Part shown: piece after piece, positions 1,201 through 54,877 of the stretch
How the letters are laid out: every line of letters starts with the position of its first letter
Numbering within the stretch: position 1 is the first letter of the stretch
Source of the DNA: a virus
Length of the DNA: 64,000 nt
Reading direction: 5' to 3' (one strand)
IMG/VR virus record: IMGVR_UViG_3300017917_003612
Location: 14,549-78,548 of that record
The notes under the pieces: generated by a model
Told to the model about the DNA's origin: nothing
The model's input: the letters and a program-made list of their open reading frames with translations, nothing else
Database searches by the model: none
Position numbers and translations under genes: made by a program

Positions 1201-1212
1201 ATCATAAAGAGA

Positions 1213-1407
1213 TTATTTTTGATCTTTACTGTTACTAGATGGTTGTTGTTTCAAATGCTCTACAGATACGCACCTAGCAGTCATATTGGGCCTATTCTGT
1301 ATCAATATACTGGCAGCTTCCCAACATTCCTCAAATCTGTCAAAGGTTTTCCACTCACTTTCGTGCAAAACACCTGATATAACAACAGTTACAAAAAGTA
1401 CATACAA
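1213..1407 (-). CDS. 64-aa two-Cys protein inside the tmRNA intervening segment
   Basis: TTG start 8 nt after AGGAG; hydrophobic N-terminus and C...CV pattern shared with four other ORFs here. Confidence 0.7.
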   Translation of the reverse strand: MYVLFVTVVISGVLHESEWKTFDRFEECWEAASILIQNRPNMTARCVSVEHLKQQPSSNSKDQK

Positions 1408-1422
1408 ACCATAATCTCCTTA

Positions 1423-1486
1423 TGGTGGACCAGGCGGGAGTCGAACCCGCGTCCAGAACCCTTTTTGGGTTGCTTCATACAGCAAT
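1423..1486 (-). ncRNA. ssrA: tmRNA acceptor piece (T-arm, 3' acceptor strand, encoded ACCA); 5' end approximate
   Basis: GGAC-GCGGG-UUCGACU-CCCGC-CUGGUCC-A-CCA; forms a 7-bp stem with G3.U70 against 1200-1194. Confidence 0.92.
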
Positions 1487-1507: not shown

Positions 1508-3097
1508 TTACTCAACTACAAATAAATCATTATTGACAATTTGAGCTTTGTTTTTATTTATAATTATATTTTTTGATTTGTCTTTAGTGGGCAGCAATGA
1601 TTCTTTAATATCTTTATTTGCATAACTAGTAACAAGTGCCAGTTCTTTTACAATATCTAGTTGATCCAACCACTCTTTCATAAAAGTTTTTGGAATGCAG
1701 AAGTAAAATCTTCGTCTAATTTTTTTCTGCTGCTTGTACCAAGATGATTCAGAAACATATTTTATGTAACTAAACACCAATTCCACAGGCACGTCTTTGC
1801 CAGCATTTTCGTACCAATAATTTTTGAATGTATCGTGTAGGTTATCTGCTATGTTTTGAGCGGGCACCGTCCTGCAACATCCTGGGCTGCTGTTTCGTGT
1901 AATATCAAATTCACAGAAGCCAAAATAATCAGTGCTTCCGTCCGATGGATTTGAAGTAAAGTAAAAACTTGGTCTAGGATTGGGATTTAATTCATAAACA
2001 AAACTACATTTTTTGATACTGTTATGTCTAAAATAAAATCTTGTTTCTTTGCGTTGTTGAATAATATGATAGTTATCTATGTTATCAAAAATGCCAATAT
2101 CAACTTTAGATTTTACCTCGTTTATATAATCAACTATCTGTTGAAGTTTTGCATCAACTTTAACAACATCTTTGTTTGATAAAACTTTTAAGTGAAATTT
2201 ACCGTTGTATTGCAAATCTTCTCTCAATGATGCTACAGTTGTGTTTGTAGAAAAAATTTTAACCAATCTTGTTTTAAAATGTTCTCGAGATTCTCCTGCA
2301 ACACTCAATAAAAAACTTTCAGCAGGCACGCTTCCTAGAAATGTTTTCTTAAAAATTTCTTGAAAAGGAATATCTGGATTTTTTATTTGTAAAACGGAAT
2401 CAACATTTTCATCAATACCGTTATGTTTGATGATGTAATTGTTTTCGTCGCCACCACGGATCATACTTAAAACTATAAGTCCTTGGGCAACATTATCAAA
2501 TTTTAATGGATCTACATCAAATACAGACACTATTGTAAAATATTTTTTTAGGAATTTTTTAAACTGCAAATAAAATTTGGAGTCGTTTGTAATTAAACTT
2601 TTAGGAATCACATAATGTATACCACCCTGGTAATCATTTGTTATCATTATATCAGCAGTTTTGATTATAAAAAACACTGCTTCTTCTCTTATGCCAGTGA
2701 CTCCATATTTGTGAGCTAATTTTTTGACATAATTTTTATGTGTGGTCAAACTGTACGCCGGACTACGAAATGGAACATTTCCAATGAAGCTGACTTTCTT
2801 GGTATCAAAATTCAGTTCAGTGTTGATGTCGTAAAAATTTTTATGATAAAGTGAAAGATTAGGAAATCTTTCAACTCCTTTTTGAAACCACTCTTCATCT
2901 AGTTCAACTCCAACAATGTTGGCATTGGGATACTGTTCAATCATTGGACCAATAAATCCACATCCACCAAAACTGGGCTCTACTACAATATCAGAGTCAA
3001 CTGACAGTTTATCTAAAATCTCTTTAACCAAGTCCTCGGGAGTAAAAAATTGTCCCAACTGATACTTTTTGGATTGTATGTTTTTTTCTTCTAGCAT
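1508..3097 (-). CDS. Amino (N6-A/N4-C) DNA methyltransferase, gamma-class-like
   Basis: LGQFFTP, EPSFGGCGF (motif I), GVELD, IGNVPF (NPPY-like motif IV). Confidence 0.8.
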   Translation of the reverse strand: MLEEKNIQSKKYQLGQFFTPEDLVKEILDKLSVDSDIVVEPSFGGCGFIGPMIEQYPNANIVGVELDEEWFQKGVERFPNLSLYHKNFYDINTELNFDTKKVSFIGNVPFRSPAYSLTTHKNYVKKLAHKYGVTGIREEAVFFIIKTADIMITNDYQGGIHYVIPKSLITNDSKFYLQFKKFLKKYFTIVSVFDVDPLKFDNVAQGLIVLSMIRGGDENNYIIKHNGIDENVDSVLQIKNPDIPFQEIFKKTFLGSVPAESFLLSVAGESREHFKTRLVKIFSTNTTVASLREDLQYNGKFHLKVLSNKDVVKVDAKLQQIVDYINEVKSKVDIGIFDNIDNYHIIQQRKETRFYFRHNSIKKCSFVYELNPNPRPSFYFTSNPSDGSTDYFGFCEFDITRNSSPGCCRTVPAQNIADNLHDTFKNYWYENAGKDVPVELVFSYIKYVSESSWYKQQKKIRRRFYFCIPKTFMKEWLDQLDIVKELALVTSYANKDIKESLLPTKDKSKNIIINKNKAQIVNNDLFVVE

Positions 3098-3101
3098 TAG
3101 A

Positions 3102-3109
3102 TATTTATA
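3102..3109 (-). promoter_or_regulatory. T4-type late promoter TATAAATA
   Basis: Exact TATAAATA 4 nt before the MTase ATG. Confidence 0.6.
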
Positions 3110-6984: not shown

Positions 6985-7386
6985 TTAGTTAGCAACCAAG
7001 CCTAGTTTACGCAATTCTACTGCAAAAGTGGGTCTGATATTAGGGTCTACTTCAAGTATTTCAGAACCGGCCATGTCCAATCTATCAGCAATGTCTTTGG
7101 CTTCTTTTAGCCCAAGCCGTCTGCGATCGTAGGTGCGTATGCATTTGATTACAGCAATTTTGTCTGACATCTTGCTCACAAACGGATTCTTGACATGTAT
7201 CTTGTCTCTACGATAGTTGCCGGTCAGCATGGCCATAAACACCTCACCTTTAAGTTCAGGATCGATGGTATCTGCGATTGTGGTCCACAGTTCCATGCCC
7301 TTGTCTGCACCATAGATGTCGGCAATGGTCTGCATGAATCCAATGCCGGCACCCACTAGGTCTTCTCGATGTTTTTCAGGTAGCAT
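6985..7386 (-). CDS. Protein with ribosomal bL12 (L7/L12) C-terminal-like domain
   Basis: KIAVIKCIR...LGLKEAKDIAD matches bL12 KVAVIKAVR...LGLKEAKDLVE. Confidence 0.7.
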   Translation of the reverse strand: MLPEKHREDLVGAGIGFMQTIADIYGADKGMELWTTIADTIDPELKGEVFMAMLTGNYRRDKIHVKNPFVSKMSDKIAVIKCIRTYDRRRLGLKEAKDIADRLDMAGSEILEVDPNIRPTFAVELRKLGLVAN

Positions 7387-7658
7387 TACTTGGGTATATT
7401 ATAATCTCTATCGTATTGAGATGTTACGCTCCAGTGTGCTTCTGGTCCTGGATATTTTATATTACTCTCTACTGGCAAGCCAAATCGTTTTAGAATATTT
7501 TTACGATCCGCTTGCGAACCACAGCATTGAGCACATTCCTGCACAATCAATTCGCACAGGCGCAGGATGGCTTCGTGGTCATACGTGTCCATTTGATCCC
7601 AACATCCTTGTGCGGTGATACCGGCTTCATACATCAAGTTGTCAAAATGTTCGTTCAT
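7386..7658 (-). CDS. Hypothetical protein, LIVxEC family
   Basis: ELIVQEC...ILKRFG. Confidence 0.7.
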   Translation of the reverse strand: MNEHFDNLMYEAGITAQGCWDQMDTYDHEAILRLCELIVQECAQCCGSQADRKNILKRFGLPVESNIKYPGPEAHWSVTSQYDRDYNIPK

Positions 7659-7819
7659 AATTTTTTCTTTACACAAAAGGTTTGAATTTCAGGTTGCCGT
7701 TGTTGAACAAATTCGGCCTGCTTGAGGCAGGCTGCTTGACCTACAGTCTCCAAGTAGGGATCATATAGTATTCGATTGGGACCAAGCACTGTTATAACCA
7801 CAAGGATCCAAATATCCAT
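7655..7819 (-). CDS. 54-aa two-Cys small protein, not in ORF track
   Basis: Manual translation MDIWILVVITVLG...AACLKQ...TFCVKKKL; TAATG and ATGA overlaps at its ends. Confidence 0.65.
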   Translation of the reverse strand: MDIWILVVITVLGPNRILYDPYLETVGQAACLKQAEFVQQRQPEIQTFCVKKKL

Positions 7820-8379
7820 TAGTTTTTGTAATACAAATCAACGCGACGATTCTGCGCCCAGGCAGCTTCATTGGATCCTACTGCTCGAGGTTTTTCACTG
7901 CCATACGAATAAGCTTCTACTTGATTTTGTCTGGCGCCGTAAAATATCAACAACATTCGTACTGCATTGGCTCTGCGTTGACCCAATGCCAGATTGTACT
8001 CGGCGCCACCTCGTTCGTCTGTGTGTCCTTCAACGAAAACCAATTGATCAGGATTTTTTAAAAGAAATTCTGCATGCTGTTTGATTACGGGTACAAAATT
8101 ATCTTTCACTGTGTATTCGTCGAGATCAAAATACACACTGCTATTTTCAAACAAAGTATTTGGATCTACATTGTCTATTTTCTTGCGTGTTATTTGTGCG
8201 TCAGGATTGGCCACTTGGTCTACTATCACTGTTGCAGCATCAGTGGTGTTAGACTTGGTTGTAGTTCTATTGCTTTTGTTTTCAACTGGTGGCTGATCTT
8301 TTGAGTTGGCAGTATCTTGCAAACTGGTCATAGAACAGGCCGCAAGAGATAAAACTATGGTATATGGCAAAATTTTCAT
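7819..8379 (-). CDS. pal: Peptidoglycan-associated lipoprotein Pal-like (OmpA C-terminal domain)
   Basis: Lipobox LAAC; SVYFDLD, VEGHTDERGGAEYNLALGQRRANAV, SYGSEKP, QNRRV. Confidence 0.9.
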   Translation of the reverse strand: MKILPYTIVLSLAACSMTSLQDTANSKDQPPVENKSNRTTTKSNTTDAATVIVDQVANPDAQITRKKIDNVDPNTLFENSSVYFDLDEYTVKDNFVPVIKQHAEFLLKNPDQLVFVEGHTDERGGAEYNLALGQRRANAVRMLLIFYGARQNQVEAYSYGSEKPRAVGSNEAAWAQNRRVDLYYKN

Positions 8380-8636
8380 TCTTCAACTCCAAAATGTTCT
8401 TTGATATTATCAATACACTCATCGGCACCAACAATATCAACTTGATCGCAAAGTCGGATACATTCCCGAACAATCAACTCGGCGAATTTACGACCAGTTC
8501 CGCGCCAGATATCGCTATGATACACATTAAAATTAGCCTCAGCGGCCAATTGTTCAAAAGGGTCAGTGGGGTCTTTGACCAGCACACTCCGATATGCTTG
8601 ATCAAATTCTGGAAAGTCGCTAGTGGGTTTTGTCAC
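8376..8636 (-). CDS. Hypothetical protein, LIVxEC family
   Basis: FAELIVREC...IKEHFGVE. Confidence 0.7.
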   Translation of the reverse strand: MTKPTSDFPEFDQAYRSVLVKDPTDPFEQLAAEANFNVYHSDIWRGTGRKFAELIVRECIRLCDQVDIVGADECIDNIKEHFGVEE

Positions 8637-9030: not shown

Positions 9031-9243
9031 CTAAGGTTTTTCTGTGGGAATCATTTTCATAAAACTCTGCATCATGTTCTGTGCCCGTACCATACTTTCT
9101 TCTTGCGATTCTTGTCTGACGCATCCGGCTTTGATTTCTTGCCGCTGAAATTCTCTAGCGGCAGATTGACAGTCAGATAGATTGTTATAAGAACCAAAAT
9201 TTTGGGCTCCTGTAGCCGTGATGAGCAATAGTGTATAAATCAT
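9031..9243 (-). CDS. Small two-Cys protein
   Basis: MIYTLLLIT...YNNLSDC...AGCV. Confidence 0.65.
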   Translation of the reverse strand: MIYTLLLITATGAQNFGSYNNLSDCQSAAREFQRQEIKAGCVRQESQEESMVRAQNMMQSFMKMIPTEKP

Positions 9244-9473
9244 GATTCAAATCCAAAGTGTTGTTCAATTGCTAACTTGTGTACATGAGCGGGTTTGGCG
9301 TAAAAGAAACCCGCTGGTATTCTTTCTTGTTCATGTAATACTGTAACACATTCTGCGATTATCAGTCTACCTAAAATCGCATTGTACTGTTCAATCCAGG
9401 CATCTACACCCAAGCCCGCAGGCACTTGGGTCTTGGCCTGCGCGGCCAACTTTTGAATAAGGTCAGACATCAA
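9240..9473 (-). CDS. Hypothetical protein, LIVxEC family
   Basis: RLIIAEC...IEQHFGFE. Confidence 0.65.
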   Translation of the reverse strand: MMSDLIQKLAAQAKTQVPAGLGVDAWIEQYNAILGRLIIAECVTVLHEQERIPAGFFYAKPAHVHKLAIEQHFGFES

Positions 9474-15862: not shown

Positions 15863-16780
15863 CTATGTTACTTCTTGCTCTTGAGGTTTTTTGAATACAC
15901 TATATATTTTTTGTATTCCAATTCCTTTTATTCCATTTGCATGTAATACATTTGCTACAAATGTTCCACAATTTTCAGCTCCTACTGAGTTAGTTGTAGG
16001 AACTGATACTGGTTTTGATAATGACACAATTTTTATGTTTTGTTTTGGAAACTCTGGGTCATCTGTAACTGCGTTGGTGACATATACATCATTGCCTTTA
16101 TGCCCACTCATTTGTATTTGTTTTCCGTCTTGAGTTATAAATCCAACATGGTCATAACTCCATCCTTTAGGTGTTTTATTACTGCGGGCAAAGAATATTT
16201 TGTCTGACAAATAGTTGCCAATTTCTTCCATTATTTTTTGTGGATTCAATTGATGCATTAGATTTCCCGCACCGGTTGGCACTGGTCCCCCGGACCCAAC
16301 AAATCCCCCCCGCACCGGTACACTTGAACTACCCCGGGCTGCTGGAGGAGAAATTTTAGCTACATCAGACGACGAAGCAAACACCACAGGTAATTTTGCT
16401 GTTTTCCATAACGGGTTATCTCTATCCATTCTTTTTTGTAATAAACCTAACGCAGAAATTCTATGAGCACCATCATCAAGTTTTCCGTCTACAGCTACAA
16501 TAGGTGGCAAAGTTTTTAATGACTCAGGATTGTCCTTTAAAAACTTTGCATATTCTACCGCTTTGGGAGTCACATTCCAACTAAAATCTTTTTTATCGTA
16601 ATCTCTAATTACATCTTTGTGATATGGTATTCCCTGTATACTTTTATGAATTTGTTTTAAAGTTAAATTTTGTTGATTTAGATTAGCATCAGGATTTAAT
16701 TGGGCAGCTTTACCAGAACTTGGCCCGGGTTGTGGTACTGATAAATCGTCAGCCTCTAGTATAAATTCGTATGCTCTCAT
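15863..16780 (-). CDS. Putative capsid-targeted protein: ParB/Srx-like plus permuted papain-like domain
   Basis: MRAYEFILE; PPIVAVDG..DGAHR; YDHVGF...NCGTFVANVL. Confidence 0.65.
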   Translation of the reverse strand: MRAYEFILEADDLSVPQPGPSSGKAAQLNPDANLNQQNLTLKQIHKSIQGIPYHKDVIRDYDKKDFSWNVTPKAVEYAKFLKDNPESLKTLPPIVAVDGKLDDGAHRISALGLLQKRMDRDNPLWKTAKLPVVFASSSDVAKISPPAARGSSSVPVRGGFVGSGGPVPTGAGNLMHQLNPQKIMEEIGNYLSDKIFFARSNKTPKGWSYDHVGFITQDGKQIQMSGHKGNDVYVTNAVTDDPEFPKQNIKIVSLSKPVSVPTTNSVGAENCGTFVANVLHANGIKGIGIQKIYSVFKKPQEQEVT

Positions 16781-18249
16781 AGATTCCTTTCCCAAATCAC
16801 AAAGGGATCATTTACTACTATTGTGCCGTCGGGTCTGGCCATATAATTGCCACTATGCAAGTCAACTGTAAAATTGTGCCGACGAGCAAATCTTTCAACT
16901 TCATACACAGTTTTTAATAAACCATCAGCTCGTTCAGGTCCGCCTAACAGATCAATAACTTCCTTTATATCTTCAAAGTACTGTGGATTGTAATCTGGTG
17001 CATAATAATCTTCTGCACTGGCAAATTCTGCATAGGCTTTAATTTTCTTGTATGCTGATTCAAAATTACCTCGACCTATTTGTTTAGTGACCTGATCAAT
17101 TTGTCCAACCAAGGTTCCAACTGTTTTAGGTAATTCTTGTAGTGTTTCCATTCGGGCTTGAATATAGTTTTTACCTTGAAATTTAAAACTTTCAAATGCA
17201 CTAAAACGAGGCAAGTGCGGATTGTCTTTGTTCTTGTTGCAGTAGTCGATCCAGTTGATAAACATACGCTGGTCAGGGCTGAATCCTTCTACACCTTTAC
17301 GATATCCAAACACAATATAAACTTGTCCATTGGGTTCAAGATATGCTTGTTTGTCTATTCCGCCGCCCAAGTATTTGTAACCTTTTTTGGCTAGAGCTTG
17401 GCTGATACCAACATGTATTGAGCCAGCCATTTCGTCAAGTGCTTCTTCAAATTGTGCAGAGTATCCAACATTGAACTGTGGTTTAGCTCCAGGAAAATTG
17501 GGCTGATTGACGCCGGCACTGAATCCTTTTCGTTGATATTGTGCCCCAACTCCTGTTACACCAAAATCCTTTTGTCCGCTAGCACTCAATGAAATAGAAC
17601 TGTCTTTGTCAACTGGTATATTGTAAGATCCTGATACAGATCCTCGGTCACCTATGTTTACACTGGCAGGACCATATCCAAGATTGATACCTCGTTGAGC
17701 TTCATAATCTCTCATGCCTCCGGGCATATCAGCTGATATGCCTAAATTCAGCCCTGTGTTTAAATTGCTGTACTGAGCACGTTGTAATCTTTTTTCTGGA
17801 TCCACGCTGGTTTGTGCTGTCCAATTGACTGGTTTTTCTTTTGGCATCGGCAAGTCAGGCAATTCGTCATCGTTTATAACCTGTCTGCTGACCATTTCTT
17901 CTAGGTGTGCAATTGCTTCGTCAGCTCTAATTGCTTTTGCGTAATCTTCTGGGCTGTCTATATCGTGCAAGCTAAAGCCCAGGCGCTTGAGCAACGGAAT
18001 CATTTTGTGTTCTTCTTCTTCACTGCCAAACGCAAACACAGTGTGCGGCACACCTTTGTTAAATGTTCTAGGATCTGCATCGTCTAAGTCACTCACTGCC
18101 ATGCCCAGCTTGTACCAGTCGTACACATCGCTCACATTGACCAAGGTAGTACCTTTGGGAAAACTCAACGGTGTGCCCGGATCACTTTTGAGGTACTGAT
18201 CTTCATCGTAATCGGGGTTATCTTCTAGTATAAATTCTCTTGCTCTCAT
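16777..18249 (-). CDS. Putative capsid-targeted polyprotein with C-terminal protein-kinase-like domain
   Basis: MRAREFILE; YLGGG, HLPRF, METL, DLHSGNYM...VVNDP. Confidence 0.7.
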   Translation of the reverse strand: MRAREFILEDNPDYDEDQYLKSDPGTPLSFPKGTTLVNVSDVYDWYKLGMAVSDLDDADPRTFNKGVPHTVFAFGSEEEEHKMIPLLKRLGFSLHDIDSPEDYAKAIRADEAIAHLEEMVSRQVINDDELPDLPMPKEKPVNWTAQTSVDPEKRLQRAQYSNLNTGLNLGISADMPGGMRDYEAQRGINLGYGPASVNIGDRGSVSGSYNIPVDKDSSISLSASGQKDFGVTGVGAQYQRKGFSAGVNQPNFPGAKPQFNVGYSAQFEEALDEMAGSIHVGISQALAKKGYKYLGGGIDKQAYLEPNGQVYIVFGYRKGVEGFSPDQRMFINWIDYCNKNKDNPHLPRFSAFESFKFQGKNYIQARMETLQELPKTVGTLVGQIDQVTKQIGRGNFESAYKKIKAYAEFASAEDYYAPDYNPQYFEDIKEVIDLLGGPERADGLLKTVYEVERFARRHNFTVDLHSGNYMARPDGTIVVNDPFVIWERNL

Positions 18250-54817: not shown

Positions 54818-54877
54818 AGAGTGTATTTATAGAATTGTATGACTAGTATACTATACTAAGAGAAGTTGGTCAACGAT

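Follow-up and report, generated by a model that had tools for sequence, protein, structure and literature searches.

The window, the whole 64,000-nt stretch of viral DNA analysed here, codes on its minus strand for a permuted, two-piece tmRNA, the landmarks of which are collected in Table 1. First, the Rfam model of permuted tmRNAs (RF04321, tmRNA_permuted) matches 1073–1484(−) over its full extent (model positions 1–213), with 129.9 bits compared to a gathering score of 47, and the gene displays the order that characterizes this class: an acceptor piece featuring the T-arm and an encoded CCA, followed by the coding piece. Second, the two pieces form between them an acceptor stem of 7 bp (1433–1427 with 1200–1194), in which the G3:U70 pair is kept as G1198–U1429. 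Third, the tag frame, recovered both by ARAGORN and by reading of the sequence, specifies AANDELFEVRLAA followed by a stop codon and has the hydrophobic ..LAA end expected of the class. By these features, the locus is a functional-looking phage-encoded two-piece tmRNA gene. The first-pass annotation of this DNA had recognized it as a permuted tmRNA with a 222-nt spacer between the CCA and the 5′ G, and ARAGORN, RF04321 and the sequence agree with that assignment.

The window is drawn from an IMG/VR virus record of 78.5 kb that is estimated to be just 22% complete, and its source is therefore probably a very large phage; tail-fibre and virion-protein families are found in the window. The tandem duplication at the 5′ edge of the acceptor piece (1470–1507) may be a trace left by the rearrangement that brought an ORF into the spacer.

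Table 1. Positions of the tmRNA gene, its spacer, the nested ORF and the closing stem in the window
Feature	Position	Strand	Details	Basis
Permuted (two-piece) tmRNA gene, outer limits	982–1515	−		ARAGORN
Acceptor piece	1423–1484	−		Sequence reading, RF04321 match
T-arm of acceptor piece	1450–1434	−		Sequence reading
Acceptor 3′ strand	1433–1427	−		Sequence reading
Discriminator; CCA	1426; 1425–1423	−	Discriminator is A1426	Sequence reading
Intervening segment (spacer)	1422–1201	−	222 nt; absent from mature two-piece tmRNA	
Coding piece	1016–1200	−		Sequence reading, ARAGORN, Rfam
Acceptor 5′ strand	1200–1194	−	Mature 5′ G is 1200	
Tag reading frame	1114–1073	−	AANDELFEVRLAA and stop	Sequence reading, ARAGORN
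64-aa ORF in spacer	1213–1407	−	TTG start; stop UAA at 1215–1213	
Closing stem, 5′ strand	1411–1426	−	ACCA and spacer nt 1–12; holds the SD AGGAG	
Closing stem, 3′ strand	1201–1216	−	Holds the stop UAA and the conserved UGAU facing ACCA	
Tandem 19-nt duplication, 5′ edge of acceptor piece	1470–1488 and 1489–1507	−	17 identical positions; one copy in the nearest relative, L120	

The spacer ORF and its protein family

The ORF on the tmRNA strand takes up 88% of the spacer (when the spacer interior is shuffled, such coverage arises by chance in 0.2% of cases), and it is preceded by an SD, AGGAG, at 1420–1416. The first-pass annotation had proposed just such a 64-aa frame, nearly filling the spacer and starting at TTG 1407 with AGGAG 8 nt 5′ of it, and the sequence bears this out. 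A search among 5.8 billion proteins recovered five homologues with 64–78% identity, and a profile search against 1.8 billion cluster representatives returned 22 matches at E ≤ 1e-3, two of which, both long and repetitive proteins, are probably spurious. The fetched loci contain 21 distinct family proteins. They constitute a small family of 53–72 aa, with an invariant core of the form E..C.E.A ... A.C (E-E-C ... A-R-C) and variable tails; the TTG of the spacer ORF aligns with the ATG of the homologues. In viral contigs, an alignment-based search found the family, whereas the spacer ORF used as a single sequence had no match, and neither did the homologues P0001 and P0002. Isolate phage genomes yielded no match to the spacer ORF and a 64-nt partial match only to the tmRNA gene.

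A metagenomic relative, L117, has the same layout as the window locus: its spacer measures 220 nt, its 5′ stem strand starts with the same TAAGGAGA, and it features a TTG at the equivalent position and a stop codon equally far from the mature 5′ G. Scanning for TAAGGAGA preceded by CCA turned up largely unrelated sequences and no additional spacer of the window type. An upstream ORF of seven codons, from ATG 1412, was dismissed, as it is missing in L117 and has an SD spacing of just 3 nt.

Comparison of the window and L117 spacer ORFs gave a pS of 0.71, a pN of 0.17 and an omega (dN/dS) of 0.089, as against 1.3 and 1.6 in the two shifted frames; this estimate for the spacer context is from a single pair, the family copies found in spacers being two in number (window and L117). 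The first-pass annotation had staked its reading on purifying selection acting on the ORF, and this is what the pair displays. The same two loci agree at every nucleotide of the tRNA-like domain and of both junctions (about 1458 to 1415 among them) while the synonymous sites are near saturation. Since omega is low in the ORF frame and the RNA flanks are identical, the protein and the RNA parts are separately constrained, and neither is a relic. Thus, as judged by its pattern of substitution, the spacer ORF is a real, selected protein-coding gene.

We then considered where the 21 distinct members are placed with respect to the tmRNA. Only two of them, those of the window and L117, are located in a spacer, whereas 13 are same-strand genes located 5′ of the tmRNA. 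In nine of these 13, the stop codon is 41–104 nt before the CCA end, and the gene therefore abuts, nearly abuts or overlaps the acceptor piece of about 62 nt. The stretch from the stop codon to the acceptor piece has no room for a promoter in L134; in L120, it contains a promoter-like TTGACA-17-TAAACT. For six of the 21 members, motif search found no tmRNA, and ARAGORN does call one in L131. On a tree of the mature parts, the window tmRNA groups with L002/L120, L054 and L100 (SH-aLRT 98). Its nearest relative, L002/L120, has the family gene upstream and a spacer of 81 nt, and L100 has the same TAAGGAGATT stem as the window with a different ORF. L117 is placed apart from the window on this tree, and an AU test does not reject a clade of the two (p = 0.195). 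Both spacer copies start with TTG, as against ATG in 14 of the 19 other distinct members. In both, the C-terminus is also extended by about 10 poorly conserved residues, which are disordered in the structure model; the C-terminal tails of homologues P0001–P0005 are long, like those of the spacer copies. As the family is usually found upstream of the acceptor piece and here resides in the spacer, we infer from these placements that it has moved between the leader and the spacer of the tmRNA.

An AlphaFold model, built with the family alignment, has a β-β-α-β fold with a pLDDT of 86.5. The hydrophobic N-terminus is modelled as a β-hairpin and not as a membrane helix, and the model thus lends no support to a single-pass membrane protein. 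Of the two invariant cysteines, one is situated in the modelled helix and the other in the last strand, which suggests a disulfide or a metal site. A structure search found no match in the PDB; in BFVD, it found many uncharacterised phage proteins of 50–65 aa. No Pfam family was recovered at E ≤ 1, and hence no match to DUF1482 (PF07358), a family of small phage and prophage proteins; the only links to it are a feature match in Atlas (0.84) and a DUF1482-named BFVD model at rank 47 with E = 0.09. PHROG 3766 gave a marginal match (E = 0.01).

The protein had also been thought to resemble four other small two-Cys ORFs of the window, a suggestion that did not survive closer comparison. Of all 1338 stop-to-stop frames in the window, the family HMM (--max) picks out one weak candidate, 9031–9243(−), with E = 3.4e-4; this 70-aa ORF has a hydrophobic N-terminus and two cysteines, and BLASTP produced no alignment between it and the spacer ORF. 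The ORFs taken for relatives were probably the minus-strand frames 7386–7676, 8376–8636 and 9240–9473, which have an 'ELIV.EC'-type motif in common and resemble one another weakly in pairs (E = 5e-4 and 6e-3). By their sequences, these seem to make up a local group of paralogues that has no relationship to the spacer ORF. Elsewhere in the window, 7819–8379(−) codes for a 186-aa protein whose N-terminus resembles that of a lipoprotein and which contains a peptidoglycan-binding domain of the OmpA family (Pfam PF00691, E = 1.3e-15). A 490-aa protein encoded by 16777–18249(−) has a weak match (E = 4e-7) to the PHROG of the T7 gp0.7-like protein kinase, which is described as modulating RNase III and RNase E; this kinase-like protein may be relevant to RNA processing in the phage.

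The closing stem as a processing helix and the spacer as a slot

When paired by hand, the two strands of the closing stem (1426–1411 and 1216–1201) match at 15 of 16 positions, with one G·U (G1419–U1208) and one mismatch (C1425–A1202). The stem is also present in the MFE folds of both the spacer (z = −3.3) and the whole gene (z = −3.4). Hand pairing and folds alike thus uphold the first-pass description of a 15-of-16 pairing that prolongs the acceptor stem and covers the SD together with the stop codon. The closing helix extends the acceptor stem and joins the two tmRNA pieces, although an acceptor stem of such length could hinder RNase P instead of helping it.

An 18-nt motif at the 5′ end of the coding piece served to collect 115 viral contigs, nearly all of which have a permuted tmRNA, with spacers ranging from 30 to 226 nt. 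All 46 distinct spacers possess the stem: their first 10–11 nt pair with the nucleotides preceding a terminal UGAU, which is itself conserved opposite ACCA in each of the 46. Across stem positions 2–11, 92% of the cells are paired, compared to 70% with shuffled partners (none of 2000 shuffles reaches the observed value), and up to six pair types occur per stem position in this set. The window and L117 stems differ by one compensatory change, UA to CG. Covariation in homologous phage loci had been proposed as a check on the stem, and its absence from relatives as a reason to abandon it; the comparison came out in favor of a conserved helix on both counts. By this covariation, the closing stem is a general conserved element of the phage pre-tmRNA family and is not peculiar to the window locus.

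The relationship of the stem to the genes that it encloses is informative in two respects. First, the stem is likewise found in the 36 spacers without an ORF, and therefore it has not evolved to lock this particular SD. Second, its 5′ strand contains SD-like purines, such as GGAG and GGAA, in seven of the 10 ORF-bearing spacers and in none of the 36 ORF-less ones (Fisher p = 2e-6). This distribution indicates that the ribosome-binding site is written into a pre-existing processing helix wherever a gene sits in the loop. The stop codon, where the spacer has one, lies in the 3′ strand of the helix or immediately next to it. The earlier idea of an SD locked in the processing stem thus stands to the extent that the SD is predicted to be paired in the finished RNA, but not in the sense of a stem made for that lock.

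A selected long hairpin of the spacer interior was considered and rejected. The coding sequence alone has a z of just −0.97, upstream-located copies of the family fall in the same range (+0.9 to −3.0), and hence the low z of the spacer stems from the closing helix. The L117 spacer has a fold z of −4.4, and the consensus fold of the window and L117 retains the closing stem only.

At least eight unrelated sense ORFs are found in phage tmRNA spacers of 88 nt or more; those unrelated to the window ORF are from L100/L072, L113, L091, L074, L009, L021 and L102. Spacer ORFs start 6–13 nt into the spacer, or 39 nt in the case of L102, and their ends vary. The stop lies 12 nt before the mature 5′ G in the window, L117, L009 and L021, and is the TGA of the ..ATGAT that directly precedes GGG in L113, L091 and L102. 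The ORFs of L100, L072 and L074 are without a stop in the spacer and run on into the tmRNA, where they cover the first 78–84 nt of the mature coding piece. In these three, a message lacking a stop codon would result from cleavage by RNase P. L100 and L072 have 25 identical N-terminal residues with nearly all synonymous sites changed (pS 0.99, pN 0.017), and a class of hydrophobic peptides of 24 aa is represented in spacers by four or five sequence variants. The ten ORF-bearing genes are scattered on the tree of the mature tmRNA part, where 10 state changes are needed, a number that is an upper bound because many branches are poorly resolved. Thus, as gauged from related phage loci, the spacer is an expression slot entered by different small genes. 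That related phage tmRNA genes differ in the ORF enclosed by this spacer agrees with the 'cargo slot' of the first-pass annotation, and we consider it very probable that a real gene is nested here in such a slot.

Two further observations concern these collections. In L102, the 226-nt spacer (L102:1612–1837) opens with three tandem RBS-like 14-nt units (TAAGGAAATATCCA-like) followed by a 61-aa ORF, which ends at a TGA facing the CCA. The 18-nt motif of the 5′ piece, which in viral contigs belongs almost exclusively to permuted tmRNAs, is found in bacterial genomes (loci L255–L374) with 84 one-piece tmRNAs and 1 doubtful permuted one among the 120 matches listed.

A possible coupling of translation and tmRNA maturation on one precursor

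We used partition-function folding to follow the SD along the transcript. The predicted probability that AGGAG is unpaired stands at 0.81 for all nascent 3′ ends between 1395 and 1217, drops to 0.00 when transcription reaches 1201 and is likewise 0.00 in the complete RNA. In the excised spacer, the SD is predicted to be closed likewise, with the probability rising to 0.98 when 12 nt are taken off the 3′ end. We propose that translation would take place from the nascent or unprocessed precursor: the SD would stay free until the 3′ stem strand has been made, over roughly 200 nt of transcription, and ribosomes would load co-transcriptionally, with helix closure to follow. Formation of the stem would shut the SD and silence the message while the tRNA-like domain folds, and the closed helix would present this domain to RNase P (at G1200) and to 3′ trimming back to the CCA, a processing that would release the two tmRNA pieces. 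Each transcript would accordingly yield a short burst of protein and would then be converted to tmRNA. Resting as it does on predicted folds, this kinetic coupling of translation to tmRNA maturation is put forward tentatively, as a possible mechanism. The first-pass annotation had gone further and taken the excised spacer itself as an mRNA or cargo slot whose translation is tied to maturation; what folding predicts is an SD accessible in the nascent RNA and paired in the finished one. The statement as a whole, comprising the nested gene, the slot and the coupling, is the best explanation of the locus and the one towards which we lean slightly. The weak TTG conserved in both spacer copies fits a gene riding on a very strongly expressed stable-RNA transcript. 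The stopless spacer ORFs of L100 and L074 are at odds with a simple 'terminate, then fold' scheme. A still broader proposition strikes us as rather doubtful. It would combine a general exchangeable slot in which the stem acts as a timer, translation only during the spacer's own transcription, irreversible passage from precursor to tmRNA, genes hopping between leader and spacer, and stopless variants that make non-stop substrates of their own tmRNA.

A somewhat unlikely alternative is that gene and tmRNA merely coexist: the ORF would be one cistron of a long polycistronic transcript that includes the methyltransferase-like gene, the tmRNA and the ORF 986–636 onward, all on the minus strand, and the stem would be a processing helix without a regulatory role. 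Some transcripts would be translated and others processed, with the ribosome-binding site placed in the stem for want of other room. The organization of the region is suggestive of such a transcript, with tightly packed same-strand genes (1508–3097 upstream and 636–986 about 30 nt past the tmRNA) and no terminator-like site within 600–1800. Relatives of the L134 type, in which the gene abuts the acceptor piece, would have mRNA and tmRNA co-transcribed anyway, and the occurrence of the stem in 36 of 36 ORF-less spacers agrees with a helix serving processing. Further, a scan of the minus strand around the gene revealed no sigma-70-like promoter, and the ORF might therefore be read from a long, never-processed polycistronic mRNA. 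Three points are difficult to reconcile with coexistence alone: the SD and the stop codon occupy the same stem positions in unrelated cargo (stop at −12 in the window, L009 and L021), TTG is kept in both spacer copies as against the ATG of most distinct non-spacer copies, and the finished RNA is predicted to be SD-closed, making some effect on translation hard to avoid.

The sigma-70 scan gave two weak matches on the plus strand, fewer than in shuffles. A T4-late-promoter-like TATAAATA occurs at 1562–1555(−), but with 3 copies in the window compared to 6 expected, this motif shows no enrichment. Its sites, 1555–1562, 3102–3109 and 54824–54831, are all on the minus strand, i.e., the coding strand; two are just 5′ of gene starts, and one is about 70 nt 5′ of the tmRNA.

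In hok-type mRNAs and in the processing stems flanking rRNAs, the two ends of an RNA segment pair with each other, which hides the SD and sets the sites of processing. By analogy, the excised spacer could be a stable, silent hairpin in which 3′ nibbling after RNase P cleavage opens the SD and switches translation on; further trimming would remove the stop codon and create a non-stop message to be handled by the tmRNA itself. The predicted opening of the SD upon loss of 12 nt (from 0.00 to 0.98), the position of the stop codon 13–15 nt from the spacer 3′ end and the relatives without a stop codon inside the spacer (L100, L072 and L074) are in line with this scheme. We nevertheless regard it as improbable: for all its hydrophobic N-terminus, the product is predicted by AlphaFold to be a small β-β-α-β protein and not a membrane-helix toxin, no toxin family was matched in Pfam or PHROGs, and 3′ trimming to the CCA is expected to destroy the spacer. 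The likeness to hok-type fold-back inhibition is thus one of logic only, the product as modelled here not being toxin-like.

Finally, it is very improbable that the ORF is incidental to a structured non-coding RNA, or to a decaying insertion in a dead tmRNA gene: although the spacer folds as one long hairpin with low z in both the window and L117, and ORFs of 42–52 aa also exist on the opposite strand, the low omega is confined to the ORF frame, the codon-position pattern contradicts this reading, the coding sequence alone folds within the range of the upstream copies, the consensus fold consists of the closing stem alone, and the tRNA-like domain and junctions are identical in L117 in the face of nearly saturated synonymous sites.

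Relation to known tmRNA genes and implications

Permuted tmRNA genes are known from Caulobacter and other Alphaproteobacteria, some Betaproteobacteria and Cyanobacteria (Keiler 2000 and Sharkady and Williams 2004, as summarized in PMC9004378; RF04321, PMC11915505). The window gene resembles these in the order of acceptor piece, intervening sequence and coding piece, in the tRNA-like domain with a G:U at acceptor position 3 and an encoded CCA, in the tag frame ending in LAA and in the absence of the intervening sequence from the mature RNA. It differs from them in that the 222-nt intervening sequence encodes a selected protein, with the ribosome-binding site and the stop codon lying in the closing helix. 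The literature that we searched describes the intervening sequence as discarded only.

Among phages, two-piece tmRNAs have been reported from aquatic myophages, namely the OM43 phage Melnitz and pelagimyophages, and account for 53 of 133 unique phage tmRNAs, with 50 of the 53 coming from aquatic phages; the same paper also places a glutamine riboswitch in the ssrA 3′ domain (PMC9004378). Like the window, such phages possess their own permuted ssrA among protein genes. Unlike the window, no spacer protein gene is reported for them in PMC9004378. The cargo listed for tmRNA intervening sequences comprises a tRNA-Ala gene and a repetitive element, without a protein gene, and group I introns with homing-endonuclease genes occur in the tmRNA T-loop (PMC11915505). 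The window spacer is comparable to both in that foreign sequence is accommodated in a stable-RNA gene, within a portion that the mature RNA lacks. It is set apart from the endonuclease-bearing introns in two ways: the cargo is an ordinary small protein gene without a mobility enzyme, and removal is by tRNA-type end processing instead of self-splicing. The literature searched contains no description of a protein gene nested in the spacer of a phage two-piece tmRNA.

Precursors of stable RNAs are regarded as non-coding and their spacers as waste; here, a spacer whose excision is required for tmRNA function carries a selected gene. Small phage genes of a kind that gene callers usually mask beneath the RNA annotation are thereby brought to light. 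The locus also offers a natural system for studying competition between translation and RNA processing on one molecule, and the presence of the gene upstream in some phages and inside in others provides a natural comparison for the effect of the spacer position on expression. The layout of stem, ribosome-binding site and stop codon is compact enough for a trial as a synthetic 'one-burst' device for co-transcriptional expression.
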